The position numbers and the translations under genes were made by a program. DNA of 62,639 nt from the NCBI GenBank assembly GCA_016206925.1, contig JACQQS010000055.1, positions 1-62,639 on the forward strand, given 5' to 3'. The notes under the pieces are model-generated. The model saw only the letters and a program-made list of their open reading frames with translations. It was not told where the DNA came from and ran no database searches. This document shows, piece by piece, positions 8,108 through 61,452 of the stretch. Each line of letters begins with the position of its first letter. Position 1 is the stretch's first letter. This DNA is from Candidatus Omnitrophota bacterium. Lineage in GTDB: Bacteria > Omnitrophota > Omnitrophia > Omnitrophales > JACQQS01.

Positions 8108-11100
8108 TTGGACAAAAAGGGAAGTACAAAGGGCTTTTCAATAGTGCATAGAGCTATCGCATGGGTTCTAACTGGGACCATGGCATTGGCGAATCCTGCG
8201 GCCTCAATTGCTTTTCCGATCGCGGGCGGCCCCTTAAGTCCGCCAACACCTGAAACCGAAGTTTCTGCGGATCAGAAGATTCTTGCCGATAAAGTGACGC
8301 CGGTTCCATCTAAAGTTGAATTCGACGCGATCTCAGACGTCATCATTAACGCGGGCAATACGGTTCTGCTTGAGTTAAAAGCCCATTCAAACGCCGGTCA
8401 TGAAGTTTCCTTTACGGCCGCTGATCTTCCGGACGGTGCAGAACTCACCGGGAACAAATTTCAATGGGCCGCCGGTCCCGGTGTGCAGGGGGAATACAAA
8501 CTCATTTTTAAAGCGACCGACGGTTCCGAATCGGCCGAACAGTCGGTAAGCTTTTATTTTGTTCCGACACCCGGATCCTCTTCTTCTAATGCCGCGAGGC
8601 CGATGATCCTTCCCGATCAAAGACCCTCGGACGGAACAGCCGCTAATTCAAAGAATTTCGTTATCGTGATACCCACCGGTTCTTCAGGAACGGGCAGTTC
8701 CGGATCGACATCTCCGCTAAAAGATACGAAGAGCGGTAATTTGAAAGAATCTGGATTTCGCGCGGATGAGGCCGCTACGGGCGGAAATGACGGCAACGTG
8801 GCTTTGGCTCCGGGTACAGAGGCTTACGGATTCGGCGGACCCGGCCTCTTTTTTCCGGATGATTCTAACGATTCAAACAATTCCGGCGGCAATGACAATT
8901 CAAATTCAAGCGACGGTTCCGGTGGCGGTGGCGATAACAGTGGTGACGCCGGCTCTGGTAGCGGCGGAGATGATACAGGGGATGATGATGGAGATGATGA
9001 TATCCTGCCGAATCCTGAACCCACCACGGACACCATAGTTCCGGTCTTTCTTGCTTCCGATCCGGTTTCCGGTTCGGAGGTAAATTCGCTTGCGCAGGTT
9101 CGATTCTTTTTCTTTGACAACATTGACCTCGACGAGAACGCGACAGCGTCGACGCTCAGCGTTACTCAAGACGGCACGCTCTTTCCTAGTTCCAGCTATT
9201 CGAAAAATTCAAGCGCCGCGAATCAAGTTTCGGTATCTATCGCAAACGTTTCAACCGAGCGGCATGTCTATCGTTTTCGTATGACTCCCGTCGATACCGC
9301 CGGAAATAGAGGCACGCAGGCGGACATTACCATTACCGATCTTGCCGATCGTGCCGATGTGCACAACACGTTTCAGGACGTCACGTTTCTAATCCAGCCG
9401 GTGTATGTGTTCGGCCGCGCTGCGGCTTTTGCAGATTACAACAACGACAACTTTGAAGATCTCTATGTCATCAATCCGCATCGACAGGATGCAAACCATT
9501 TTGGTTTGCCGGCGGCGTATGTGGGAGAAAATATGCTCCTGAAACAGCTGGCCGATCGCACGTTCGTAGATGAGGGAAACCCTTTTGACAAAAATGCCTG
9601 GATGCCCGGCCATGTCGGGAGCACACCGAACGCTGCTTCGCAACCGCAAAGCATTGCATTCGGCGATATCGACAATGACGGATTCCGCGATTTCTTTATC
9701 ACGAATAGTTCCGGTCCGAATGTTCTTAAACGGGCGGTACCTGACGAGGACAGAACATTTCTCAAGTTTGAAGATGAAAACGCTCAGCTCGAGGGCGGCA
9801 CCGATATCGGAGACTCACGCGGCGCCATTTTTGCCGATTTTAACGGGGATGGCTACGTGGATATTTACGTAGCGAACGGCGTTAACAACAACGTGCTCTA
9901 CGTAAACCGGCGCGGAGATCCGGGAAATCCTCCAAATCCAAATTCATTTGCAAATATGGCCGCTCAAGCGGGTGTTGAAGCGGCCGGAAAAAATTGCCTG
10001 AGCGCGATTGCCTTTGATGCGGATAACGACGGCGATTCGGATTTGTACCTGCTCTATCTCCACTCACCCAATGAACTTTATGTAAATGACAGCACTACTT
10101 TCACGCCGCATTTTACATTGGCCGCCGGCGTGATGAATCACAGCGGTCATTCCACTGCGGCGCAGGCAGGCGACTTGGATAACGACGGTTTCGCAGATGT
10201 TTTTGTCTGCGATCTGGAGGGCAATTCGAAACTTTACCGCAATACGACGGTTTCCACGAACAATCCAACGTTCCAAGACGTTACCGCCCCGGCGGCCGTC
10301 AACACCGTTTTGGCGGCTACGCAATCTAGGAACCGGCGCGTGAACGGCGCGGCGTTCGTTGATTTTGATAACGACAGCGACTTGGATATCTTTCTCTTGA
10401 GAGCGAACGACCACAATGTTCTTCTCAATAACCCGTTGGATCCGCCACAGGCCGCTTCGGTTGTCTTGGGAAACCGTGCATTTACCGATGCAACGTCATC
10501 GGAGCTGGTTGCGTTTCCCAATTTGAGTGAATCGGCTGCGACGGGCGATTTCAATGACGACGGGAAAAAAGATATTTTTGTCACCGCTTCTCCCAGCGCG
10601 CTTTCCGAAAGCGTCCTTTATCAAAACGTTTCACAGAATCAAAATCACTTTCTTAAAATCAAGCTCCAGCAATCTCCGCTTGCCGGCGATACCGGACCAC
10701 GCGATTCGACGGGCGCTATGGTTATTGTGGAAGCGCGCGGAGAAACCGGGAGCCCGCTTGCCGGTAGTATCGCCCGCCAAACACAGCAAGTTCTCGGAGG
10801 GAATGGGCGAGGGCAGGATTCTTCCGTTCTTCACTTCGGTATCACAAACGCCATTCAGCCGGGCGACATGAGCAGTGCAGAACTGGACATCACCGTTTTC
10901 TGGCCTAACTCGAGTCGCTCTACATTTCTAAGCAGCACGCTCGGGGATTTTGTCATCGATAGCACCGTAACGGTTACGGAGAACACGAACACGCCCAACC
11001 CATTCTTTATTGGAATTACCGAGAGCGGTGTCGATCGCAATGCCGCCATCGATACGGAATTCTTCTTTATTCTTCAGGTTGACGATCCCGATCCGGCGGT

Positions 11101-13279
11101 GGATGAGCAGAGTTTGAGAGTTACCGTATCTGATAACGTGGGTACGTCTATCGGTAATGGCAATCTTACGCAGTTGACCGGTGAACAACTCGGCAAATGG
11201 CTCTTCCGGTTTAATGTAAACCAGCCCGGCTTTTCCGTTGGTCAAGAGATTACACTTGATTTTCGCGTCACCAATCCGGCAACGCGCCGGTTTTCTGATG
11301 CTGCCTTGAGAATACACGTAGTTTCGCAGGCCGGCGCCAATGCCGTTCCGGTTATTGACGGAATTCCGGCGGGTGAGGTTAAGCTTGATTTGGCAGTCAC
11401 GAATTCAGAAATGATCGTTCCGCTCATCGTCACCGATTCCGATTCTATATTGGCTTCCGATCCGCCGCTTGCCTTGAGTGTGAATCTTGCCCTTCAAAAT
11501 GGAAATCTGCGTCCGGGCACGAGCCAGATCGAACTCTTGGGCTCCGGTAGCGTAATACTCTCAAACGACGGCAAGCAGATCATTCAAAGTATCCGCTGGC
11601 AGCCCGACCCGGGCGATCTTGTTTTGGGTCAGGAGGCGACGGGGGCTGTTTACACCGTTTCGGTAACCGTTGATGATTTCGTCGCCGGCGACGCGCGCAC
11701 TCCATTTACAAAAACGTTTAATGTGCGCGTGTCGAACCGCAGCGCCTCGAATCCTGTGCCCACGGCGTTAATTCTCAGCCCTGCGGACAACTCAACCATA
11801 AATACAAGTGACATCCTTGTAACATTCGACACGCCGGACTGGACCGTCGGCGGAAAAGGTGGGACGCACATCCATTTCCATCTTGATAATGTACCGGGTT
11901 ACAGTTTTAACGATCCTTTTATGTTCTACAACGGCAGCGACCGTATCGTGGAGTTCAATCTTGAATCCGGCCAAACCAATCATGCCACTTGGGCAACAAT
12001 CAATTCACTGGTTTTTCATAATGTGCCGGATGGTCTCCATCGGCTAAAAGCTCATCTGGCGGATGAGTTTCACAATGATTTGCAGAATTCCGAAGCCAGC
12101 ATGATCGTGACATTTGATGTGGCGGCGGGGCCGCGCTGGAATGAAAATCAACCTTCCAACGGCACGGCTGTTGTCGGCCGGCCGATAGAAATCAATTTGG
12201 CGGATGCCATTACAAGCCCGGGCCTTCATGCTTTGAATTTTAGTTTGCACGAAGTCAAAGACCCTTCCGGGCAGGATGCTATCAGGTTCCTTGATGGCAA
12301 ATATTCGATCAACGGTAATGGTCTGTTTACGTATACGCCCGGAATAGAGGAAGTGGAAGCCGGTCCGGCGCTGACCTTTTTCTTTGCCGTAGAAGACGGT
12401 ATTAATCCAATTCAAATTTCGGGTGGCACGGTTATCACTATTCAACATGAGCTCGCATGGAATATGCCTCTGCCGCAATCGGCGGACGTCGGCGGGCTTT
12501 ACATTATCCAATTGAATCACGGTGACGAAATCACCTATACGGGATTGACGGCCGATTTGGTTGTCACACTTGAGAGTTCGACGGCCAATGATCCGGACAG
12601 TTATGTTTTCGATCAGAATACGGACACGCTCTTCTACCGTCCCAATCCAAACGATTACGCCGCCAACGTAAGCAGCGGCACGCCGGTAAATTTCAGTTTC
12701 CGCGTCACCGATGGTGTAACGAGTCCGGTAACGGCCGGCGGAACACTGACCATTGCTGCCTTGACCGACATTTCCGGCAAGTACGGCATGGTTTTTGAAA
12801 ACCTGAACGGTTTCACGTTTGATGCCAATCAGGTTTTTGAACATGCCGTCGGCGCAGATCCGTTAAGGCCGGGCATGGAGAAATGGAAACTTGAACTTCA
12901 TTCAGACGGCGCCAGCATTGACAACGGGGCAGGACATAGTCTCGTCGGCTTTGGAGATGTAACGGGAAAGGAACTTGCATTTGACATTCGCGTTGCCGAG
13001 GCGCTCACCGGCGTTCCGATTTTGATCGGACTGAAAGACACCAGTTTAAACGAAGTAAACAACATCAATATTGAAACACATCAGGCTGTCGTGATCGAAG
13101 GCATCGTCACGGGCGATCCGGAAAGTTTGCGCAGCGACAAGTACGTTCGGGTGAGGATTGACACGAGTGCCTTCGCAGGAGTCGACCTTGCGAATTTGGA
13201 GAATTGGACCATTCGTATTCCGGACCAGGGTGCCGGTGCGGTATTTACGCTGTTCCTTGACAACATGCGGTTTGAATGA
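8108..13279 (+). CDS. Giant secreted FG-GAP/VCBS-repeat + ASPIC/UnbV (CRTAC1-like) protein with Ig-like modules and a C-terminal CBM-like domain (P1)
   Basis: 1723 aa. TTG start. Signal-peptide-like N-terminus. Ca-binding blade motifs GDIDNDGFRD, ADFNGDGYVD, FDADNDGDSD, GDLDNDGFAD, VDFDNDSDLD and GDFNDDGKKD. ASPIC-like NHFLKIKL...VLGGNGRGQDSSVLHFGI. D/G/S/N-rich linker. Ends LFLDNMRFE. Confidence 0.75.
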   Translation: MDKKGSTKGFSIVHRAIAWVLTGTMALANPAASIAFPIAGGPLSPPTPETEVSADQKILADKVTPVPSKVEFDAISDVIINAGNTVLLELKAHSNAGHEVSFTAADLPDGAELTGNKFQWAAGPGVQGEYKLIFKATDGSESAEQSVSFYFVPTPGSSSSNAARPMILPDQRPSDGTAANSKNFVIVIPTGSSGTGSSGSTSPLKDTKSGNLKESGFRADEAATGGNDGNVALAPGTEAYGFGGPGLFFPDDSNDSNNSGGNDNSNSSDGSGGGGDNSGDAGSGSGGDDTGDDDGDDDILPNPEPTTDTIVPVFLASDPVSGSEVNSLAQVRFFFFDNIDLDENATASTLSVTQDGTLFPSSSYSKNSSAANQVSVSIANVSTERHVYRFRMTPVDTAGNRGTQADITITDLADRADVHNTFQDVTFLIQPVYVFGRAAAFADYNNDNFEDLYVINPHRQDANHFGLPAAYVGENMLLKQLADRTFVDEGNPFDKNAWMPGHVGSTPNAASQPQSIAFGDIDNDGFRDFFITNSSGPNVLKRAVPDEDRTFLKFEDENAQLEGGTDIGDSRGAIFADFNGDGYVDIYVANGVNNNVLYVNRRGDPGNPPNPNSFANMAAQAGVEAAGKNCLSAIAFDADNDGDSDLYLLYLHSPNELYVNDSTTFTPHFTLAAGVMNHSGHSTAAQAGDLDNDGFADVFVCDLEGNSKLYRNTTVSTNNPTFQDVTAPAAVNTVLAATQSRNRRVNGAAFVDFDNDSDLDIFLLRANDHNVLLNNPLDPPQAASVVLGNRAFTDATSSELVAFPNLSESAATGDFNDDGKKDIFVTASPSALSESVLYQNVSQNQNHFLKIKLQQSPLAGDTGPRDSTGAMVIVEARGETGSPLAGSIARQTQQVLGGNGRGQDSSVLHFGITNAIQPGDMSSAELDITVFWPNSSRSTFLSSTLGDFVIDSTVTVTENTNTPNPFFIGITESGVDRNAAIDTEFFFILQVDDPDPAVDEQSLRVTVSDNVGTSIGNGNLTQLTGEQLGKWLFRFNVNQPGFSVGQEITLDFRVTNPATRRFSDAALRIHVVSQAGANAVPVIDGIPAGEVKLDLAVTNSEMIVPLIVTDSDSILASDPPLALSVNLALQNGNLRPGTSQIELLGSGSVILSNDGKQIIQSIRWQPDPGDLVLGQEATGAVYTVSVTVDDFVAGDARTPFTKTFNVRVSNRSASNPVPTALILSPADNSTINTSDILVTFDTPDWTVGGKGGTHIHFHLDNVPGYSFNDPFMFYNGSDRIVEFNLESGQTNHATWATINSLVFHNVPDGLHRLKAHLADEFHNDLQNSEASMIVTFDVAAGPRWNENQPSNGTAVVGRPIEINLADAITSPGLHALNFSLHEVKDPSGQDAIRFLDGKYSINGNGLFTYTPGIEEVEAGPALTFFFAVEDGINPIQISGGTVITIQHELAWNMPLPQSADVGGLYIIQLNHGDEITYTGLTADLVVTLESSTANDPDSYVFDQNTDTLFYRPNPNDYAANVSSGTPVNFSFRVTDGVTSPVTAGGTLTIAALTDISGKYGMVFENLNGFTFDANQVFEHAVGADPLRPGMEKWKLELHSDGASIDNGAGHSLVGFGDVTGKELAFDIRVAEALTGVPILIGLKDTSLNEVNNINIETHQAVVIEGIVTGDPESLRSDKYVRVRIDTSAFAGVDLANLENWTIRIPDQGAGAVFTLFLDNMRFE

Positions 13280-13755: not shown

Positions 13756-13898
13756 TCGGATTATTAAATCTTTCTTAATAGCTGAATCAGGATGATAAGG
13801 CATGGGATTTTGTAATCGTTTGTAATCGCTGGAAAATAAGATAATTGAAGTTGGAAACGACTTCAAAATTGTTAGAAAGTAAATGGGAGGTAATGAAC

Positions 13899-14852
13899 AT
13901 GCTAAAACGAATGATTGCAGTAACGCTTGCGAGCGGTTTGGTTTTCTTGAACATTCCGCTTGCATTTGCAGCAACATCACTAGAAGTGTTTTCTATTCCT
14001 TTAACAGGCGGAGGCGTTTTGGAGCTGTCTGGTACGAACGACATTGATGTCACGCTTGTTGACAATGAAGAGTCAGGAATCGCTGATGGACAGATGGAGT
14101 TTCCTGTTACGGGTACCAATTTTGTACCTGAAGGCGACGAACTCCTGCGGGTGAGGTTTAAAGCAAATAACAACAATCTAGGCGTGGAAAACTTTAAGTC
14201 TGTTTTGATTTACACGGACAACAAGAGTGCGACTGCGAATCCAAGGGCGAGTACAGATAATCACTTTCCTGCGGGTCTAGTGAGAAGTGATGCCGATGCC
14301 ACACTCGACGGTGATGTTAGCACGCCGCTTCACTGGGTTGTGTTTCCTACGTCAGCGGAGGCAAAGGCGTATAACTTTTTGCCTTATCGACACGGTGTGG
14401 ATCCTTTTCCTGTCAAACGTGATAAGAGCGAGAGTATCGACTCGCGGATTCAGGCTTTTGTGAGCGATAAATCAGGGAATTTGAAAGTTGATGGTAGCCC
14501 TGACTTACAGGATTGCGATGCTGATCCTAATACTCCATCCACCGTATTTTGCCAGAATTTCGCGACGGTCATCTCCGGCCTTACAGGTGTGACCGCCGGA
14601 TTGGCTAATGTTCCGAAAGCTGACAACTGCGCAGAATCCGATCCCAGACTTTGCGGAAATAGCGATGATCCAAACACACCTGCGGTAGAGACGTTTCCGG
14701 CAAGATTGATTACATCGGATATTTCAGCCGATGACCTTGAAGGCGATGGTTTCGGAGAAGCTTATATCTTGCTGGCCGCAAATTTTAACGGAAAGCCTGC
14801 AGGAACTTATACAACCAACAAACTCACAATCGAATTGGTTCAGGGAGTTTAA
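13899..14852 (+). CDS. Small secreted protein S1, homologous to the C-terminal domain of giant protein P2
   Basis: Start chosen at ATG 13899 (gggagg 8 nt upstream). Signal peptide MLKRMIAVTLASGLVFLNIPLAFA. Mature N-terminus ATSLEVFSI. The tail AYILLAANFNGKPAGTYTTNKLTIELVQGV parallels the P2 tail. Confidence 0.6.
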   Translation: MLKRMIAVTLASGLVFLNIPLAFAATSLEVFSIPLTGGGVLELSGTNDIDVTLVDNEESGIADGQMEFPVTGTNFVPEGDELLRVRFKANNNNLGVENFKSVLIYTDNKSATANPRASTDNHFPAGLVRSDADATLDGDVSTPLHWVVFPTSAEAKAYNFLPYRHGVDPFPVKRDKSESIDSRIQAFVSDKSGNLKVDGSPDLQDCDADPNTPSTVFCQNFATVISGLTGVTAGLANVPKADNCAESDPRLCGNSDDPNTPAVETFPARLITSDISADDLEGDGFGEAYILLAANFNGKPAGTYTTNKLTIELVQGV

Positions 14853-20910: not shown

Positions 20911-21735
20911 GTGGCAAGAAATTTTAGACCGTTTATTTTTGCAGTCTTCACACTTTGCTTGAATCTGGTTCCGGGAATTCTCGAAGCATCGGGTGTATCC
21001 TTCGGTCCGGGCATCACGGAACTCTTGCTCCGGCCGGGTGAAAAAGGCGCAACGGTATTTCATGTCCTCAACGAAACCGATCAGGATATGAGAATAAACG
21101 TTGAAGCGGTAAATTGGCTAGTCCGTCATCTCCAGCGCGAAGGCCGGATCGATGATGTTTACGAATGGATGGATTTGGGGAATTATCGAGAGTTTACGGT
21201 GCCGAAACATAGCCGTGGCAAGCTTTCGGTGGATGTGAAAGCGCCGGATAGTTTTGAAGGCGAGCGGATTGCACAGGTCTTTTTTCAATATTCTCCCGTT
21301 GAGGCGACCACAGAACAAGCAGCGGCTGAAAAACAGGTCAGTTCACGGATCGGACTGCTTGTCTGTCTGGGTGCTAAAGGCAAAGAGAAACTTTACGCTG
21401 ATCTGGCATTGGATGCGGTGAAAGCAGCCGCTCTTGAAGATGGAAAGGCGGATGTCTCTTTTTCGTACACCATTAAAAATCTGGGGAATATTCACATATC
21501 TCCCCGTGGGTTCGTGAGGATAAAAAAGGGAAAGGATACGCTGTCAGAGATGGAAATCGGGGTTGTTCAAGGGCTTTATACAAATGAAAAACGTGCATAC
21601 CGAACCGTGCTCAAAGCAGTGTCGCTTCCTTCCGGTGAGTATGACGCTGAAGTAGATATCAAAATGATCAGTTACGGGATGGAAAAGCGGATGCAAAAGA
21701 CTCAAAAAATCCCGATAAGTGAGGTCGCCGAATGA
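20911..21735 (+). CDS. Secreted two-domain (Ig-like) protein; candidate PapD-like periplasmic chaperone
   Basis: 274 aa. GTG start with aaaggaaag upstream. Signal peptide. The mature start GVSFGPGITELLLRPGEKGATVFHVLNETDQDMRINVEAVNW resembles chaperone N-termini such as GVALGATRVIYPAGQKQ..L.VTNNDE...LIQSW. The stop overlaps the S2 start (ATGA). Confidence 0.3.
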   Translation: MARNFRPFIFAVFTLCLNLVPGILEASGVSFGPGITELLLRPGEKGATVFHVLNETDQDMRINVEAVNWLVRHLQREGRIDDVYEWMDLGNYREFTVPKHSRGKLSVDVKAPDSFEGERIAQVFFQYSPVEATTEQAAAEKQVSSRIGLLVCLGAKGKEKLYADLALDAVKAAALEDGKADVSFSYTIKNLGNIHISPRGFVRIKKGKDTLSEMEIGVVQGLYTNEKRAYRTVLKAVSLPSGEYDAEVDIKMISYGMEKRMQKTQKIPISEVAE

Positions 21736-22361
21736 AATTTCAATGGTTTAAATTTTTCGCTGTTTTAGGACTGGTTTTTATCTGCCTGACTGCGGGTACT
21801 TTCTCTTTGCAAAATGCTTACGCATCTACTTCGCTTGAGATATTCGAAATCTCAGCAAGTACCGCAAGCGGCACTCCGTTTACCATGTTTGAGGGAAATA
21901 CGCCGTTCTGGGGTGATTGGAGCGGTGATCCGGGTACAGACGTTTCGAGGATTTCGGAGCCGAGTTCCATAAATGGAGATGGCGGCGCCTGGCGCATGAC
22001 ATTGGTTGATACTGCTAATGGTTCACGGCGGTTTGCTCTGGCGGGATGGGCTTTGAATCATCTGAATGTCGTTGGGAAAACACATTTGGACCTCTACGCC
22101 CGTGGCGGCTCGGGCGGCGAAACATTTGAGGTAGGGTTAAGCGACAGCGCAGTACCAAAACACGAGATTCGTCGTAATGTCGCCCCATTCATTGTCGGCG
22201 GAGGCTTGATTACCACTGCTTACAAACAAATTCGCATTCCCCTGACAGAATTTTCGAATGGTGGCGTGGTCTTAAGTAATTTGGATGCTTTCCTCGTCAT
22301 CTCAACCGCGCCCGACGGTCAGACCAACGTTCTCTATCTCGACGCCATGAGATTTGAGTAG
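21732..22361 (+). CDS. Small secreted protein S2, homologous to the C-terminal CBM-like domain of giant protein P1
   Basis: 209 aa. Signal peptide ending NAYA. Mature N-terminus STSLEIFEI. The tail YKQIRIPLTEF...NVLYLDAMRFE parallels the P1 tail YVRVRIDTSAF...FTLFLDNMRFE. Confidence 0.6.
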   Translation: MKFQWFKFFAVLGLVFICLTAGTFSLQNAYASTSLEIFEISASTASGTPFTMFEGNTPFWGDWSGDPGTDVSRISEPSSINGDGGAWRMTLVDTANGSRRFALAGWALNHLNVVGKTHLDLYARGGSGGETFEVGLSDSAVPKHEIRRNVAPFIVGGGLITTAYKQIRIPLTEFSNGGVVLSNLDAFLVISTAPDGQTNVLYLDAMRFE

Positions 22362-54627: not shown

Positions 54628-54663
54628 TCCATGGCGATTGGGTTAACTCCCAGTCGCCATGGA
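54628..54663 (+). promoter_or_regulatory. Long hairpin between flp and the assembly genes (processing/attenuation candidate)
   Basis: tccatggcga (54628..54637) pairs with tcgccatgga (54654..54663), a perfect 10 bp, with a further tggg/ccca inside. No T-run follows. Confidence 0.4.
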
Positions 54664-54775
54664 GCTGGTCTTTCGGTATCACAGAGGAGATTACAGACTT
54701 AGATCGATCGGATTCGCGGGAAACGGATTTGTAAAATATAGCTTCCGCGGGCAAAGAGGGGTGGAAGAAATTTTT

Positions 54776-55450
54776 ATGTTTCCGGTTAATATCAAAGATT
54801 TATTGGGAAGTAAAATGAATTCAAAAGATGAAGATTCCTCTTTTTTAGAATTTATTTTTTCGAGTCGAAAGAAACAATTTTCAAAAGGTTTACCAAGCAT
54901 AAGAGGATCAGCACTGGCTGAATTTGCCCTTGCGCTTCCGGTGCTCGTTGTGTTTGTGACGCTGACTCATCAAGTTTGGAATACGATCGAAGTACATAAA
55001 GCGCTGGATGACACTGCTCGTGAAGCGGCACGATTTGCCAGTCTCCAGATTCCTCCTATGGCCACAATAACGCCGGCTGTTCAACAGTATGTTGCTAATA
55101 CGCTCGTACCCAACTCGAAATTAAAAGCATACGATCCCTCCAAGATCACTGTGGGTGTTGAGCGCTTAGGCAGCACCCCTGGAACTCCGGAAGACACCGT
55201 TCCGAAGGGCACCGTCAATCCGGGAGATGTTTTGAGGGTATCTGTTGGTTTGGCGGCAAACCAGCCCGGTGGATTCTATTCATATCTATTCCCCAGTGCG
55301 TCTTCGATCGTGCGCAGTGCTTCGTATGTCCAAGCCAATCCGGTGACAGGCGTTCCTGAACCTACACCTACGCCTTCTGGCCCGGGTTGCTGTGCTACGG
55401 ATGAATTTGGAAATTGTATCGAATTGTGTTGTGAGCCGCCGGATTGTTAA
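54776..55450 (+). CDS. TadE-like pseudopilin with Cys-rich C-terminal tail
   Basis: TadE N-terminal segment RGSALAEFALALPVLVVFV. Start uncertain (54776 or 54815). Ends CCATDEFGNCIELCCEPPDC. Confidence 0.7.
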   Translation: MFPVNIKDLLGSKMNSKDEDSSFLEFIFSSRKKQFSKGLPSIRGSALAEFALALPVLVVFVTLTHQVWNTIEVHKALDDTAREAARFASLQIPPMATITPAVQQYVANTLVPNSKLKAYDPSKITVGVERLGSTPGTPEDTVPKGTVNPGDVLRVSVGLAANQPGGFYSYLFPSASSIVRSASYVQANPVTGVPEPTPTPSGPGCCATDEFGNCIELCCEPPDC

Positions 55451-55497
55451 CAAATAAGTGTTCTACGATTGGTTTTTACAAAGCTGAGGTTATTCGA

Positions 55498-55950
55498 ATG
55501 ACAGTCAATGCAGCCAAAAAGAAAAAAAATAAGCTTTTTACGAAATCGGGCGTGGAGGTCGTCGAATTTGCCATTGTGTTTCCGCTTTTCGCCATTATGG
55601 CTCTGGGTTCGGTCGAAGTGGGCTGGCTGCTCTATCAGCAGAGCGTTCTGGATTATGCAACCAGACAAGGCGCCCGCTACGCTTCGGTTGATACCGCAAG
55701 CGCATTGAAAGCCGGCATTTCGTCCGACGTTTCAGCACAAGCTGAGGCGGTGATCATAAATACCGTCACGGGATTCGGGGGGACTGCCCCCACAAATATA
55801 TATCTTAAGATGCCTTGGCCTAATGGCCGCACGTTTGCATTGGTAGCGGAAGAAACCTACACGCCGGTAATGGGAAAACTTATTCCGGCTATTTCCAACA
55901 TTTCCATGATCAAATCAACAGTAACCATGTACTGCGAAGCATGCGGATAA
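55498..55950 (+). CDS. TadE/TadF-like pseudopilin
   Basis: Start at ATG 55498 (gaggt upstream). Motif SGVEVVEFAIVFPLFAIMALG. Confidence 0.7.
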   Translation: MTVNAAKKKKNKLFTKSGVEVVEFAIVFPLFAIMALGSVEVGWLLYQQSVLDYATRQGARYASVDTASALKAGISSDVSAQAEAVIINTVTGFGGTAPTNIYLKMPWPNGRTFALVAEETYTPVMGKLIPAISNISMIKSTVTMYCEACG

Positions 55951-55966
55951 GCGGGAGAACGGAAAA

Positions 55967-56773
55967 ATGGGAAGGCAGCATCTTTTAATTTTGGGAATTG
56001 CGGTGATTGCGGCTCTACTCGGAACCGCGTTTCTGTCCGGTCAATTTGGCGGGCCCAAGACGATCGAGGGGGTGGCCATTGCCCAGTCCGACATCGAGCC
56101 AAACTCCTTTATTAAGGCGGAACAAGTCAGGGCAGGCACGGTGGACGCAACACAATTCCAGTCGGGAATGCTCTTTAGGCCGGAAAGCGCTGTGGGTCAG
56201 ATTGTGCGCGTAGAAATCCATGAGGGCGAACCGATTACGGCCGGGATGGTTTATAGCGGTACAGCCGGCCTCCAGCATATCATTCCGCCGGGATATCGGG
56301 CCCTGTCCGTTCCCGTCAATCAGCCCGAGAATGATCTGAAGCTGTTTATTCCAGGCAGCCGAATTGACATTATAGCCACGGTCCAGGATCGCCATGGAAA
56401 TTTTAGAACCGGAACGATTATGGAAAACGTTTTACTACTGGCCAAAGAAAAGGCAGGAGAGGGCAGACAAGGTGTTTCCTTTATCGTAGCGATAGATCCG
56501 AAGGGTGCGGAAAAACTTTCGCTGGCGATAGGGCACGGTGAGATTCGGGTAGCGTTACGGCAGGAAAGTGACGAATCTCTTGTTGACGGTACGGGTATTG
56601 GCATCGGGGATTTAATTAAGGGGATGGAGCCGGATCCGAATAGCGACGCGTTAATAGGAGATGCCTATGAGCCGGGATCCATAGAAGTGATCCGCGGGAC
56701 AAGAAAAACAACCGATTATTTTGAGGAAGGGAACATAAACAAAATTTCAGGCAGGATAATTCAACAGGAGTAA
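55967..56773 (+). CDS. cpaB: Flp pilus assembly protein CpaB/RcpC
   Basis: 268 aa. N-terminal transmembrane helix, SAF-like segment (IKAEQVRAGTVD) and a CpaB-type C-terminal domain. Sits between the tadE-like genes and the secretin. Confidence 0.7.
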   Translation: MGRQHLLILGIAVIAALLGTAFLSGQFGGPKTIEGVAIAQSDIEPNSFIKAEQVRAGTVDATQFQSGMLFRPESAVGQIVRVEIHEGEPITAGMVYSGTAGLQHIIPPGYRALSVPVNQPENDLKLFIPGSRIDIIATVQDRHGNFRTGTIMENVLLLAKEKAGEGRQGVSFIVAIDPKGAEKLSLAIGHGEIRVALRQESDESLVDGTGIGIGDLIKGMEPDPNSDALIGDAYEPGSIEVIRGTRKTTDYFEEGNINKISGRIIQQE

Positions 56774-56780
56774 AGTGACT

Positions 56781-59153
56781 ATGAGGAAAGGAGCGCTTAA
56801 GGTTTTCATACTTTGCATGCTGACGATTTTCATCAGTTTGCAGAGTAATATTCAATTATATGCCCAATTGTCGGAGGTCGGCGACACCATTAATTTTACG
56901 TCCAGCGAGATATCTGTACAGGCGATCAGAATGGTTGACAATACTTCCCGCTTGCTTACTTTTGAGCGGCCTGTTGTCCGGACAGCGATAGGAGATGCGG
57001 CTGTCGCCGATGTGGTGGCGGTCAGCCAAAAAGAAATATTGGTTGTAGCCAATACGGTGGGGAACACCAACTTGGTGATTTGGGAAGCGGGCGGTATTAG
57101 TGAGACTTTTCAGGTTTTTGTAGAACGCGATCCGCATGTGCTCGAGGACCTTATCGAATCCCGGTTTCCCGGAATAGATATTAAGGTACATTCGGTAGGC
57201 GAAACCTTCGCTTTAACAGGTGAGATCGATAATGCACAGGAGCGGACCGAAGTCATGGAGCTTGCCGAGCGCTACGCGGCCGGAGCGGTGGACATGATGA
57301 CGTTGAGGTTGCCGAAGCAGGTTTTAATCGACGTGTTTTTTGTCGAACTTGACAGGACGGATTCGGATGATTACGGATACAGCTGGCAAAGCATAAGCAA
57401 ATACATAAATTTGTCCTCATTTGCGGGAAATGTGGCGGGGCAAACGTTCGTCGATAACGACTTGTCAGCCGCCAAAGGCGCGTTTACTACAGACTCGTTA
57501 GCCATTGACAGAAGCGCTACCTTTCCTACGATTAGTTATATCGATGGCAAAACCAATTTGCTGTCGACCCTTGAGTTTTTGGAGTCAAAAAATTTCCTGA
57601 GGGTTATTGCCAAGCCTAAGCTTCTTGCAAAGGACGGCGAAGAAGCCGAATTTCTGGTAGGGGGACGTTTTCCATTCGCTACGGTTCAGGACGGATCTAC
57701 CAACGTTCAGTTTGAAGAATTTGGCCATGAGCTCAGGTTTAAACCGGAAATTTTGGAGGATGACATCATCCGCCTAACCGTTGAGACCATCGTGAGCGAG
57801 CTGAATTTCGCTTCCACCTTGACGATCTCCGGTAGTACCGTTCCTTCTATTATTGAGAACAATGCAAAGACGGTAGTGGAATTGAGGGATAAGCAGACGC
57901 TTGTCATCGGCGGATTTATCTCCAAACGCACAAACGACACAAGGACAAGCGTTCCTTTTCTTGCGCAAATTCCGGGGATCGGGAAGATGTTTCGAAGCGG
58001 AGATCTTGAGACGCGCGAGCATGAACTCATCTTCATCATAACGCCCCACGTCATTCTTCCTATGGAACTGGAAGAAGCTCAAAAAGCAGGAGATTTCTAC
58101 GATCCGGAGAAAATCGACCGTGTTATCCGCATTGAGGATCTTCCGGACGAAAATTATCAGGCCGATGCGCTACGCGGCGCGCTTCGAAATTATGAGGTGA
58201 ATCGAATGCTTGCCGAGCAGAATTCAACCGAGTCGATGGAAACCGTTAAGCCCGCTGATCTGGCATCAGAAGCATCTCATGCAGTCGATCTAAGCGGTAA
58301 ATCCGGGCAGGAAAGCGGCACGGGGATGAAGGAAGAAACCGGCGGTGGATTTGAAGAGCCCATGCTTAATAAAGGCAAATTCGAGTTGGATCAAGCACTT
58401 AAAAACTTGCCCTCGGATGACGGAACCATGAATGCCGATAGGGTGCCTCTGCCGTTTGATCAAGCGCCGGTTGTTCGCGGGGCGGCATTTGATCATCCCG
58501 AAACTTCGCAGAGCGTGCTTGCCGCCTTTCAGACGTTTATGAAGAACCGCATGATTAGAGACAACAATCGATATGTCTTAACGACGGAATCAAAGGAAGA
58601 TTTAGAAGATGTCGAGCTCGATTTCGAGCAGCCCGTTGTTACGCCCGCAGCTTATGTACAAGAAATCCCACAAGCTCCAAAACAAGTTGTTCAGTTAAGT
58701 GAAGCGGCTCCCATAGAGCATTACAAAGATGTCATTCCCGCGAAAGCGGGAATCCAGTCTCTAGACGCCCGCTTTCGCGGGGTCGACTTAAATACGGAAG
58801 CGTTGCCGGAGGCATTAAATGCGCTGAGTGAGAGCGCAATGGAAATACATTACAAGGACATAAGGTCGTATCCTTCGGCAGCGTATCAGGAAGCCATAAG
58901 CGCAAGTCAGCAGACGATGGCGGCCGGAATTCCTGGCGATAGACATTATCAAACAGTCGGGCCGGCTATTAGAGATTCCGTAACCGACGGGTCGGTCATG
59001 TCCTCCGAAAATATTTCGAGATACAACTCGGGAACGCGAAACTTTCGCATGTCTCCCGGGCATTGGAGTTCTATCGAACAGAATAATTTTAGGCGAGAAC
59101 AGGAACGCATAGACCAGTTTTTTGACAGCTTGGATGCGAGGAAAAATATCTAA
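56781..59153 (+). CDS. cpaC: Tad secretin CpaC/RcpA with ~370-aa C-terminal extension
   Basis: ATG 56781 is preferred over GTG 56775. Pilus N-terminal domain (LLTFERPVVRTAIGDAAVADVVAV...LVVANTVGNTNLVIW). Secretin core (VPFLAQIPGIGKMFRS...LIFIITPHVI). A long non-secretin tail follows. Confidence 0.8.
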   Translation: MRKGALKVFILCMLTIFISLQSNIQLYAQLSEVGDTINFTSSEISVQAIRMVDNTSRLLTFERPVVRTAIGDAAVADVVAVSQKEILVVANTVGNTNLVIWEAGGISETFQVFVERDPHVLEDLIESRFPGIDIKVHSVGETFALTGEIDNAQERTEVMELAERYAAGAVDMMTLRLPKQVLIDVFFVELDRTDSDDYGYSWQSISKYINLSSFAGNVAGQTFVDNDLSAAKGAFTTDSLAIDRSATFPTISYIDGKTNLLSTLEFLESKNFLRVIAKPKLLAKDGEEAEFLVGGRFPFATVQDGSTNVQFEEFGHELRFKPEILEDDIIRLTVETIVSELNFASTLTISGSTVPSIIENNAKTVVELRDKQTLVIGGFISKRTNDTRTSVPFLAQIPGIGKMFRSGDLETREHELIFIITPHVILPMELEEAQKAGDFYDPEKIDRVIRIEDLPDENYQADALRGALRNYEVNRMLAEQNSTESMETVKPADLASEASHAVDLSGKSGQESGTGMKEETGGGFEEPMLNKGKFELDQALKNLPSDDGTMNADRVPLPFDQAPVVRGAAFDHPETSQSVLAAFQTFMKNRMIRDNNRYVLTTESKEDLEDVELDFEQPVVTPAAYVQEIPQAPKQVVQLSEAAPIEHYKDVIPAKAGIQSLDARFRGVDLNTEALPEALNALSESAMEIHYKDIRSYPSAAYQEAISASQQTMAAGIPGDRHYQTVGPAIRDSVTDGSVMSSENISRYNSGTRNFRMSPGHWSSIEQNNFRREQERIDQFFDSLDARKNI
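58731..58787. repeat. REP-like palindromic element, copy b, in frame inside cpaC
   Basis: gtcattcccgcgaaagcgggaatccagtctctagacgcccgctttcgcggggtcgac, translated as VIPAKAGIQSLDARFRGVD. Confidence 0.65.
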
Positions 59154-59178
59154 CGGGATGACAGGATGACACGGAGCG

Positions 59179-61452
59179 GTGAAAAAATCCAAAAAGGGGT
59201 TGGTGAACATGAAGGCAAAACCTTCGTCAAGTCAAAGAGGATCGATCATTGGTACCCTGGTAGTTTTTATGACGGGTTTGATTGCGCTTGCGGCGCTTTG
59301 CCTCGATTTTGCCATGATGACTTCGTACAAGCGTTCCGTACAAAATGTGGCGGAAATGATGGCCATTGCGGCAATGGGATATCACACAGACGAAAACTTC
59401 GATAAGACGATATCAGGGCTTACCCTGAACCAGCAGCATCAGGCCAAAGCAGCGCTGGGGTTAAGGAATGCCTACTTTGTGTGGCAGTCAACCATTAGTT
59501 CGCTGGCAGACTCGGATAAGTTTGTGGATCCCTTTGGAGGAGTGAACTGGAGCACACAATACGAGAATATGATGACCGATCTTACGAATGGCGGTACATA
59601 CACATGGACATTTCCAGACGGCTCATACGCATCCAGCAATATCCGCTTTCTAGAAAAGGGTGGAGCAAATTATGTGGAACCCTCTGGGTTATTTAAGAAT
59701 GTAGCGGATCCTCTCATCATTCGTGCTACAAAGAATGAAATTAACACAACCGGCACCGGTTCCGGTTTGACAACCATTCTTGCTCATTATTTCGGATTTA
59801 AAAATTTCATGGTCAAAGGCAGCACATTGGCTGAGGTGAACAATACGGGAAAGGCAAACTCTGTAGTTTTGCTTCTTGACCGGAGCATATCCATGGCCGG
59901 CATGTCGGGAGATGCCGGTTACTTGCAACCCGGTGATGCTAATTATGACCCACGGTATCCGGGTTTGAGCGTATTCGATCTTTCGGCGATGACGAATACG
60001 GCGGCGACTATCCAGCCGATCACGAATATGTTGTATGCAGCGCGGCTTGTTCCGAAAACGCTTGGCCGAGCCAACTGGTTTAATGATAATCCAGCCAAGA
60101 ATAGCAGTCTGGGCTTCGTGGCATTTGATCTTGTCGCAGAAAGCGTGGATGCTCCTCCTACCAACTTTGACCTGGACTTTAACACATGTGCAGGATGCGA
60201 CAACTACAATAATGCGTATAAGACGATCAAGGATAGGATGAATGCACATATTCCCGTAATGGGACGGCCCGGCTTGCCGCAAATAAATCTCTGTGCCGAT
60301 GTTGGATGCAGGGATTGCAATACGGCCGGGTGTGCAAGTACTTGCAATCCGCTGTTCAATAATATTTTTTACGCGGCTTCGGAAGCAAAATGCATAGTGG
60401 ATGTTTTCGGAAACACCGCTCGCCCTGAACCTTCAACCGAACTCGACAGTATGTTTCCCTGGACAGCGTCCAACGAATCTCAGGGATTGGAAGTCGCCGT
60501 AGAGCTGATTCGGCAGGAAAGAAAACGTTTCTTTGACACATTCAACGGCCCCAATTTTGACATAGACAGCGAATTTCAGGGGCAGATTATCCTTTTCTCA
60601 GATGGTTTTGTGGAAGCTTTCCACGATCGAAACGCCACGCTAGACGCGTTTCCGCAAAAGTGTAATAGCGGCGGTTGTACCTTATGTGACAGCTTGCTTA
60701 CGGTCACCCACAACATAAGAGAATTTGCACCACCTCTAGATCCGGGTCCCGGCAATCCGGTGTATCAGATGGAAATCATTCCGGCCGGCTGGAGAAAAGA
60801 TTTTAACTCCAGCGGAGAACCGCGAGTAACTTGGGCAACCACGGTTTGCCCAAGCCTCGAAACTTTCGGCCCGTGTTTGGAACTTTATCATGACGGCGCG
60901 GCTCTTTACAAAAATCAACTGCCGGCAGGCAAACAATGGTTTGGTCCGAACGATCCTCCGCAGCCGGTTCCGGAAGGCCTTTACAATGTAAGTACCGTGG
61001 ATATTTCGCTCGCTCTGGCTACTCCTCGGGCAGCGGGCGGGCGTTGTCCTGGAACCGACTGCGCCGGCGCAATTGTGGCACACGAGCATCAAGATACTGC
61101 AGATACGGTTCGCAGACCAAGCATTAACCTTTACTGCCCTGATTTGCATTTCATGGACCACGTTGACTGGGCTTATGCAAACAACATCATTATCAATACG
61201 GTTGGTTTTGGGGACATTGGAACCGCATATAATCCTAGCGCCCCCAACAATAATATGCGCAGACAATTTTTGCTGAGATATGCCACAGCCCCTAATAATT
61301 ATGATCAAGACGCTTCCAATAATACGGCTACCGACAAAGGATTTTTCTTAACCAGCGCTGATGCCAACTGCAACGCTGCGGGTACAGGCTGCCCGAAGTT
61401 TGAGAGCGCATTAAAGAGAGCATTTACAAGTTTTGAGGCGAGATTGAAATGA
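59179..61452 (+). CDS. tadG: TadG-like pilus-associated protein with vWA domain, Cys-rich
   Basis: 757 aa (GTG 59179; alternative ATG 59209). TadG-type N-terminal hydrophobic segment RGSIIGTLVVFMTGLIALAALCLDFA. MIDAS-like VVLLLDRSISMAG. More than 20 Cys occur in CxxC-like clusters. Confidence 0.7.
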   Translation: MKKSKKGLVNMKAKPSSSQRGSIIGTLVVFMTGLIALAALCLDFAMMTSYKRSVQNVAEMMAIAAMGYHTDENFDKTISGLTLNQQHQAKAALGLRNAYFVWQSTISSLADSDKFVDPFGGVNWSTQYENMMTDLTNGGTYTWTFPDGSYASSNIRFLEKGGANYVEPSGLFKNVADPLIIRATKNEINTTGTGSGLTTILAHYFGFKNFMVKGSTLAEVNNTGKANSVVLLLDRSISMAGMSGDAGYLQPGDANYDPRYPGLSVFDLSAMTNTAATIQPITNMLYAARLVPKTLGRANWFNDNPAKNSSLGFVAFDLVAESVDAPPTNFDLDFNTCAGCDNYNNAYKTIKDRMNAHIPVMGRPGLPQINLCADVGCRDCNTAGCASTCNPLFNNIFYAASEAKCIVDVFGNTARPEPSTELDSMFPWTASNESQGLEVAVELIRQERKRFFDTFNGPNFDIDSEFQGQIILFSDGFVEAFHDRNATLDAFPQKCNSGGCTLCDSLLTVTHNIREFAPPLDPGPGNPVYQMEIIPAGWRKDFNSSGEPRVTWATTVCPSLETFGPCLELYHDGAALYKNQLPAGKQWFGPNDPPQPVPEGLYNVSTVDISLALATPRAAGGRCPGTDCAGAIVAHEHQDTADTVRRPSINLYCPDLHFMDHVDWAYANNIIINTVGFGDIGTAYNPSAPNNNMRRQFLLRYATAPNNYDQDASNNTATDKGFFLTSADANCNAAGTGCPKFESALKRAFTSFEARLK

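Follow-up and report, generated by a model that had tools for sequence, protein, structure and literature searches.

WxL gene clusters of Firmicutes encode a small protein consisting of a WxL domain only, a large host-binding protein with a C-terminal WxL domain, and a WxLIP protein composed of DUF916 and DUF3324 (PMC10599100). For one such cluster, the Elr pilus, a 2026 preprint reports that copies of the small protein are joined by donor-strand exchange via an N-terminal strand of 15 residues, with the WxLIP-type protein as chaperone, and that the large protein is predicted, by AlphaFold modelling, to cap the fibre; the preprint found the system in Bacillota only, with 96.7% of its chaperones membrane-anchored (bioRxiv 10.64898/2026.10.17.759780). 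The Enterococcus versions of these parts are the small pilins ElrC and ElrD, the large tip adhesin ElrA with its C-terminal WxL domain, and the DUF916 (PF06030)-DUF3324 (PF11797) chaperone ElrE, or WxLIP. Here we describe an island of five genes in a 62,639 nt contig of Candidatus Omnitrophota bacterium (JACQQS010000055.1, assembly GCA_016206925.1; 'the window' hereafter) that, by analogy, resembles the WxL and Elr clusters in gene architecture but, judged by its domains, falls outside the WxL class. At its centre is S2, a small secreted protein that is a free-standing relative of the C-terminal domain of a giant protein, P1, encoded in the same island.

The five genes lie on the forward strand in the order P1-S1-P2-C-S2. 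P1 (8108-13279; 1723 amino acids (aa)) is a giant secreted FG-GAP-repeat protein, and its paralogue P2 (15251-20899; 1882 aa) combines FG-GAP, ASPIC/UnbV and immunoglobulin (Ig)-like domains with a tail resembling S1. S1 itself (13899-14852, with an alternative start at 13845) is a small secreted protein of around 317 aa, and C (20911-21735; 274 aa) is a secreted two-domain protein with a predicted fold like that of WxLIP and PapD-like chaperones. S2 (21732-22361; 209 aa) begins with an ATG that overlaps the stop codon of C (ATGA), preceded at a distance of 9 nt by a GAGG Shine-Dalgarno sequence. On re-reading the open reading frames (ORFs), S2, P1 and S1, as well as every peptide quoted in the first-pass annotation of this DNA, were present as described there.

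That annotation had proposed that S2 is a stand-alone homologue of the C-terminal domain of P1, and comparison of family profiles, constructed from six S2-type proteins and two to three P1 tails, supports this with hhalign probabilities of 97-98%. The alignments spanned 126-155 columns: the global one covered 155 (probability 98.1%, E value 5e-13), the local one was similarly strong (97.5%, 6e-12), and a repeat of the comparison gave 97.4% and 1.2e-11 over 127 columns; as a control, the reversed P1 tail gave an E value of 0.19. No hhalign match was obtained between S2 and either the P2 tail or S1. The P1 domain is thereby placed at 12773-13276 (forward strand; residues 1556-1723, 168 residues), close to the approximate range of 12755..13279 originally suggested, as a divergent homologue of the S2 jelly roll. 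Of the two parallels by which the kinship had been recognised, the pairing of GKTHLDLYARGGSGGETFEVGLSD with GKELAFDIRVAEALTGVPILIGLKD is reproduced column for column by hhalign, and the ending MRFE followed directly by the stop is indeed common to S2 and P1, although it is partly a trait of the superfamily, [YF][LIV]D..[RTA][FI][EQ] ends being frequent in CBM30-like domains.

Methods based on single sequences were less sensitive. BLASTP aligned S2 159-209 with P1 1674-1723 at 37% identity and a pairwise E value of 0.001, which is marginal by itself, and single-sequence HMMER was too weak to reveal the link, since default-filter phmmer searches of S2, S1, the P1 tail and the P2 tail against the ORFs of the genome (an estimated 86% complete at 2.0 Mb, with 18,162 six-frame ORFs) recovered the queries alone. 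By comparison, an iterated hidden Markov model derived from 263 domains of S2 relatives identified three of these ORFs: S2, a 1252 aa protein and the P1 tail (E value 2.2e-4). The 1252 aa protein (contig C29, ORF from 30582, forward strand) carries the sole other CBM30-like domain in the genome, at residues 117-225 (1.5e-8). On the available sequences, the P1 tail is very divergent: it has no Pfam or NCBIfam match, no P1 representative occurs among the best 150 matches of the S2-family profile, and a P1-tail profile retrieved nothing else convincing from 400 genomes of the phylum. When this profile was compared with the collected CBM30-like proteins, the top four targets were all members of the S2 family, a result that is suggestive only, because the target set had been picked by likeness to S2. 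Two orthologues of the P1 tail were found, at 65-68% identity. The public gene call of P1 (P0156) is shorter, at 1699 aa, as it starts 24 codons after the TTG at 8108 (region 8108-8179).

The reminiscence of jelly-roll carbohydrate-binding modules (CBMs) remarked on in the first-pass annotation proved apt, with sequence matches to CBM30 in Pfam (for S2, just under the cut-off) and in the PDB, and superposition on CBM30, CBM8 and CBM11 at Z scores of 14-16. CBM30 and CBM11, represented by the modules of Clostridium thermocellum Cel9D-Cel44A (CBM30; 1wmx and 2c24) and Lic26A-Cel5E (CBM11; 1v0a), correspond to the Pfam families PF21582 and PF03425, which are in the same clan as CIA30. S2 scores 25.9 bits (E value 1.1e-5) against the Pfam CBM30 family, just below the cut-off of 27, and two of its orthologues score 27.9 bits, exceeding the cut-off, and 26.7 bits. 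Among 44 shorter relatives of S2, all but two match CBM30 (best E value 3.4e-24), 21 also match CBM_11 and eight match CIA30. Likewise, the S2-family profile matches the sequences of the C. thermocellum CBM30 crystal structures with an E value of 1.1e-5. A Foldseek search with the S2 model returned CBM11 and CBM30 as the best matches (E values around 4e-7), and VIA-align superposed the model on residues 12-183 of 2c24_B with a Z score of 16.3 and a root-mean-square deviation of 2.2 Å over 149 of 174 residues, the corresponding Z scores for CBM11 being 14.1-14.2. WxL chains were absent among the listed structure-search matches of the S2 model, which leaves room for a distant likeness.

S2 thus has the same jelly roll as CBM30 and CBM11 throughout the module, and shares with CBM30 the core motifs G-G-E-x-F-x-[VI]-G-[LF]-x-D and [YW]-x-x-[IV]-[RK]-I-P-L. 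CBM30-like modules were found in 164 representatives at an E value of 0.001 or below, mostly within large multidomain proteins and often at their ends, and are carried by 25 of 401 sampled genomes of the phylum; where such a module ends a protein, a terminus of the form ...[YF][LIV]D..x[FI][EQ] is frequent. Judged by profile and predicted structure, S2 is one more CBM30-like module, and the domain assignment itself is ordinary. A C-terminal location in large proteins, as in P1, is also a common feature of the CBM30 and CBM11 families. Unlike these, however, S2 is free of any enzyme, bears a 15-residue extension and is encoded by a gene coupled to that of a chaperone-like protein; furthermore, it scores just short of the Pfam threshold, and the P1 copy is too divergent for Pfam to detect.

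The 15-residue extension lies between the signal peptide and the jelly roll. The S2 signal peptide (21732-21824, residues 1-31; helical over residues 5-24 in the model) is predicted by the -3/-1 rule to be cleaved after A-Y-A, releasing the extension STSLEIFEISASTAS (21825-21869, residues 32-46), in which the strand motif TSLEIFEI (21828-21851, residues 33-40) is followed by a linker of Ser, Thr and Ala. The jelly roll, as delimited by Pfam, the PDB profile, Foldseek and VIA-align, occupies 21870-22358 (residues 47-209); all four features are on the forward strand. The AlphaFold (AF2) model of S2 has a mean predicted local distance difference test score (pLDDT) of 82, with residues 70-209 mostly above 90 and blocks of 77, 67 and 79 at the start of the domain, whereas residues 32-46 score around 50-60 and are outside every structural alignment. 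The jelly roll is complete without these residues, because VIA-align places S2 47-209 on CBM30 residues 8-183, and for the same reason the possibility that the N-terminal strand represents the first β-strand of the jelly roll was rejected. Six further members of the S2 family (201-209 aa, 27-67% identity, with an invariant core) show the same organisation of a conserved N-terminal strand and then a linker of varying length.

P1 has no counterpart of this extension, because in the hhalign alignment its domain begins at the column of S2 residue 46. A strand with the sequence GGTLTIAALTD, located just before the P1 jelly roll (12700-12772, P1 residues ~1532-1555), resembles the N-terminal strand of S2 orthologues (ASLVTVTLTAS) and has a similar spacing from the domain; in P1 it is probably the final strand of the Ig-like domain that comes before. 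From these sequences, S2 may have originated when the P1 tail and this strand were duplicated as a unit. A relationship of the same kind between the C-terminal part of S1 and the P2 tail is plausible but weaker than that between S2 and P1: the local hhalign comparison gave an E value of 3.6e-4 with a probability of just 37%, and the global comparison failed. Neither S1 nor the P2 tail has a Pfam or NCBIfam match.

The mature N-terminus of S2, STSLEIFEI, has a close parallel in that of S1, ATSLEVFSI (motif at 13974-13997, forward strand), and application of the -3/-1 rule agrees with the cleavage sites assumed when this likeness was first pointed out. The pattern TSLE[VIL]F occurs twice in the 18,162 six-frame ORFs, in S1 and S2, compared with 0.38 occurrences expected from composition, and both copies are at the same position of the two island proteins. 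The suggestion that it might be a general signal-peptidase context was rejected by the exact scan and by a scan with a looser pattern, which found only S1 and S2 convincingly after signal peptides across the genome. All six identical residues of the motif are encoded by codons that differ at the third position; recent gene conversion was hence rejected as the source of the motif, and what has been preserved is the protein sequence, not the trace of a recent DNA duplication, as the first-pass annotation had argued.

The motif is shared by this pair of proteins, but its literal form is specific to this genome. The mature N-termini of four other S1 proteins follow the consensus AS[LI][IV]TRT[IL]TG, and those of six other S2 proteins A[SN][LI]xx[VI][TA]L, so that S1 and S2 of the relatives both have strands approximating AS[LI]xT[RV]T[IL]T. 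Over the seven residues following the S-L anchor, S1 and S2 of the window are identical at three and have in addition a V/I pair, whereas each is identical to its own orthologues at zero or one; in the sister clade, likewise, S1 and S2 share three to five identities over the same seven residues. Both window proteins have also gained one residue before the anchor. Hence the N-termini of S1 and S2 are seen to have changed together in the lineage of the window, a burst of change that is local to the strand, since the S1 signal peptide is nearly unchanged between lineages. As only two lineages can be compared (that of the window and the clade of L027, L028 and P0160), this concerted change counts as one evolutionary event. 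It argues for a single common partner of both strands.

The gene to which S2 is coupled encodes a protein with a signal peptide and no C-terminal helix, modelled (pLDDT 84) as two β-sandwich domains, residues 118-155 forming a long hairpin. When nine homologues of C were combined into a profile, it matched EfmWxLIP1 (PDB 9i25_C and 9i1y) with an E value of 0.003 over 152 positions, and EcpB with 0.29; two individual homologues matched WxLIP_PGBD at 0.012 and 0.04. Arg146 opens the second strand of the hairpin and so sits at the hairpin base; it is invariant in all nine homologues, and WxLIP has an Arg in the aligned position. In a Foldseek search with the C model, WxLIP ranked first (6.6e-12), followed by CfaA, FimC, EcpB, Caf1M, CsuC, DraB and others. 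Superposition by VIA-align extended over both domains, with Z scores of 13.8 for EcpB and 13.7 for WxLIP, and of 11.9-13.8 across EcpB, CfaA, FimC, SfaE, Caf1M, PapD and CsuC. Similarly, features from a protein language model place C near the PapD and WxLIP clusters. In its predicted structure, then, C has a chaperone-like fold, and its gene is coupled to that of S2.

The arrangement is retained elsewhere. The metagenomic contig L027 has all five genes in the order P1-S1-P2-C-S2, and L028, which starts inside P2, has P2-C-S2; between C and S2 there is an overlap of one base in the former, while the two genes abut in the latter. These orthologous islands came only from one metagenome scan; searches of 40 relatives and of 400 genomes from the phylum yielded no S2 orthologue, and a scan of genome contigs gave distant CBM30-like matches alone. 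In a sister family, homologues of C are found between a giant FG-GAP/ASPIC protein and small S1-like proteins, beside an operon encoding GspD, GspF and GspG. For instance, in a related genome (L037:392-9071, reverse strand), one such island of giant, C-like and small-protein genes lies directly before a type II secretion operon comprising the GspD secretin, GspF, GspG and minor pseudopilins, and its giant protein also carries a Pfam Glycoamylase domain. In the sister family, an S1-like protein of 240-256 aa (P0164 and P0165 being examples) directly follows the C homologue in three contigs (L037:9215-9970, reverse; L038:10846-11568, forward; L036:9096-9866, reverse), taking the position held by S2 in the window. 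These proteins have an N-terminal strand, STFTAAGSIT, and an extra C-terminal strand, RTFTATVTAS, resembling the N-terminal strands of their neighbours, such that they could be self-complementing cap or terminator subunits. More distant homologues of C are located among five to eight genes for secreted proteins of ~170-200 aa (L039:5347-12392, reverse; L040:4074-12618, reverse; L041:7902-14695, forward), the products of which start with H-x-V-[TS]-[IV]-x-[IV]-P and end in ...LTLTLTDI. These clusters, which include a protein of 961-988 aa with SdrD_B, CarboxypepD_reg and T2SS-T3SS_pil_N domains, give the impression of a wider pilus-like family in which no Pfam usher is present.

In the window, the island is flanked by housekeeping genes, with a pyruvoyl arginine decarboxylase gene upstream of it and, downstream on the opposite strand, genes for a LolA-like protein and for myo-inositol-1-phosphate synthase. 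About 33 kb downstream of the island is a set of Tad/Flp pilus genes (54659-61452), which includes a TadE-like protein, RcpC/CpaB and a CpaC-type secretin (56775-59153).

As in the WxL and Elr systems, the small protein of the island consists of one module and an N-terminal strand, a giant protein combines a variable payload with the same C-terminal module, and there is a chaperone-type protein of two Ig domains, of which the best PDB match by sequence profile and by Foldseek is WxLIP itself, and whose hairpin has a conserved basic residue (Arg146) at its base. By contrast, the module common to S2 and P1 is a complete-looking CBM30 jelly roll, rather than an incomplete Ig-like WxL domain; the island has no WxL motif, PF13731 match or LPxTG anchor, and its strand consensus differs. 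C is soluble, lacking the membrane helix by which Elr-type chaperones are mostly anchored, and the host is not a Firmicute, but a member of the Omnitrophota with a secretin-bearing envelope. In being soluble, possessing a signal peptide and superposing over both domains, C is like the chaperones of chaperone-usher pili (PapD, FimC, Caf1M, CsuC and EcpB), and its putative clients have short N-terminal strands of alternating hydrophobic residues, as do the pilins of those systems. However, no usher gene (PF00577) was found in either the island or the 86%-complete genome, C has no PapD_N match, and the clients are not Ig-like pilins.

These comparisons suggest a tentative interpretation, to which we would give slightly less than an even chance: S2 would act as a subunit or adaptor that carries a strand, and the tail of P1 as its counterpart for attachment, both belonging to a non-covalent assembly that is built with the aid of a chaperone and is comparable to the WxL/Elr pilus. 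According to this proposal, C would hold freshly exported modules in the periplasm. Mature S2 has a β-strand of about nine residues, joined by a short linker to a complete jelly roll, whereas P1 has no such strand; the free N-terminal strands of S1 and S2 would dock, by β-strand addition, on an acceptor common to their partners, and the jelly roll shared by S2 and P1 would bring giant and small protein into one assembly. Strand donation in trans, the docking site, the binding of S2 by C and the formation of a fibre or complex are steps that we infer. A more far-reaching version, which we regard as doubtful, is that a soluble, usher-free, WxLIP-like chaperone assembles surface structures from CBM-type jelly rolls that are joined or anchored via their N-terminal strands, with giant FG-GAP proteins plugging in by a matching C-terminal module; the strands of S1 and S2 would then co-evolve because both dock on the same acceptor.

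Several observations weigh against such an assembly. The S2 jelly roll covers the entire CBM30 chain, with no missing strand or open groove evident, unlike WxL domains and the pilins of usher systems, and the domains of S1 and S2 are not detectably related, leaving a common strand acceptor unexplained. The low pLDDT of the S2 extension may merely reflect the depth of the alignment there, which comprises six sequences. The structural evidence on C is tempered by single Ig domains of unrelated proteins reaching Z scores of ~12 against it, and C has no Pfam or NCBIfam match, PapD_N included, and falls under the WxLIP_PGBD threshold. At the level of the 86%-complete genome, there is no usher (PF00577), no WxL (PF13731) match at an E value of 1 or below and no WxLIP_PGBD match in Pfam; nor was a sortase-type anchor found. 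A lectin role is the default expectation, because CBM30 is a bona fide glycan binder, the hallmark of the family being recognition of β-glucan or xyloglucan chains by aromatic residues on its concave face.

Under that expectation, S2 would be a secreted, lectin-like CBM30, the P1 tail would target or anchor the giant protein to a polysaccharide, be it a substrate or a glycan of the cell's own surface, and the strand would be a spacer or have a minor structural role. Such a reading remains strong in view of the complete fold and the genuine glycan binding of CBM30. It also accords with the match of both sequence and fold to CBM30 and CBM11, with the prevalence of the module in large multidomain proteins of this and other phyla, and with the glucoamylase-like domain on the giant protein of a related island. 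One CBM30 tryptophan aligns with W106 of S2, although the P1 tail has lost it, having a His in that column. What the ordinary CBM role leaves unexplained is the concerted N-terminal strand of S1 and S2, proteins with unrelated domains; the coupling of S2 to a chaperone-fold gene in all three islands; and the provision of a free-standing tail copy for each giant protein. While well rooted in the domain assignment, it appears to us possible rather than probable. A single recognition partner, which would account for the concerted change, is offered instead by the idea that the C-terminal jelly roll (...MRFE-COOH), the N-terminal strand or both serve as a sorting or secretion signal read by one envelope machine, for example type II secretion or an outer-membrane anchor, with S1 and S2 as co-secreted cargo or competitors. 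The domain is at the extreme C-terminus, with the stop directly after FE in all members of the S2 and P1 families, and the related islands abut the GspD/F/G operon. Yet Pfam and NCBIfam gave no match to a known C-terminal sorting domain, many CBM30-like domains at internal positions also end in FE, and the nearest secretin in the window is that of the Tad pilus, about 33 kb away. Type II secretion signals are not known to take the form of linear N-terminal motifs, and we consider a sorting role unlikely.

It is more unlikely still that the N-terminal resemblance has no present function and was left behind by an ancient, short gene conversion or by biased composition, with S2 a decaying duplicate of the P1 tail. 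The concerted change amounts to one event in two comparable lineages, and Thr/Val-rich strands are common after signal peptides in this class of protein, both of which suit an origin by chance or plain divergence. However, S2 is intact, has its Shine-Dalgarno sequence and is conserved in the six other sequences of its family; the motif has been kept in the protein while every synonymous site differs; and the excess over the expected number of occurrences is accompanied by the identical placement of the two copies.

The interest of the island lies in this arrangement more than in the assignment of the domain: both giant surface proteins are accompanied by free-standing versions of their respective tails, a gene for a protein with a pilus-chaperone fold is coupled to one of these versions, and two otherwise unrelated small proteins have N-terminal strands that changed jointly. 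This gene logic is that of the WxL/Elr pilus, which the 2026 preprint reports in Bacillota only. If the proposed assembly is correct, strand complementation guided by a chaperone would prove more ancient and more versatile than hitherto supposed, extending beyond Ig-like pilins and beyond Bacillota and Proteobacteria. It would also provide a handle on how the Omnitrophota, a poorly known and often host-attached group, display very large adhesin-like proteins.

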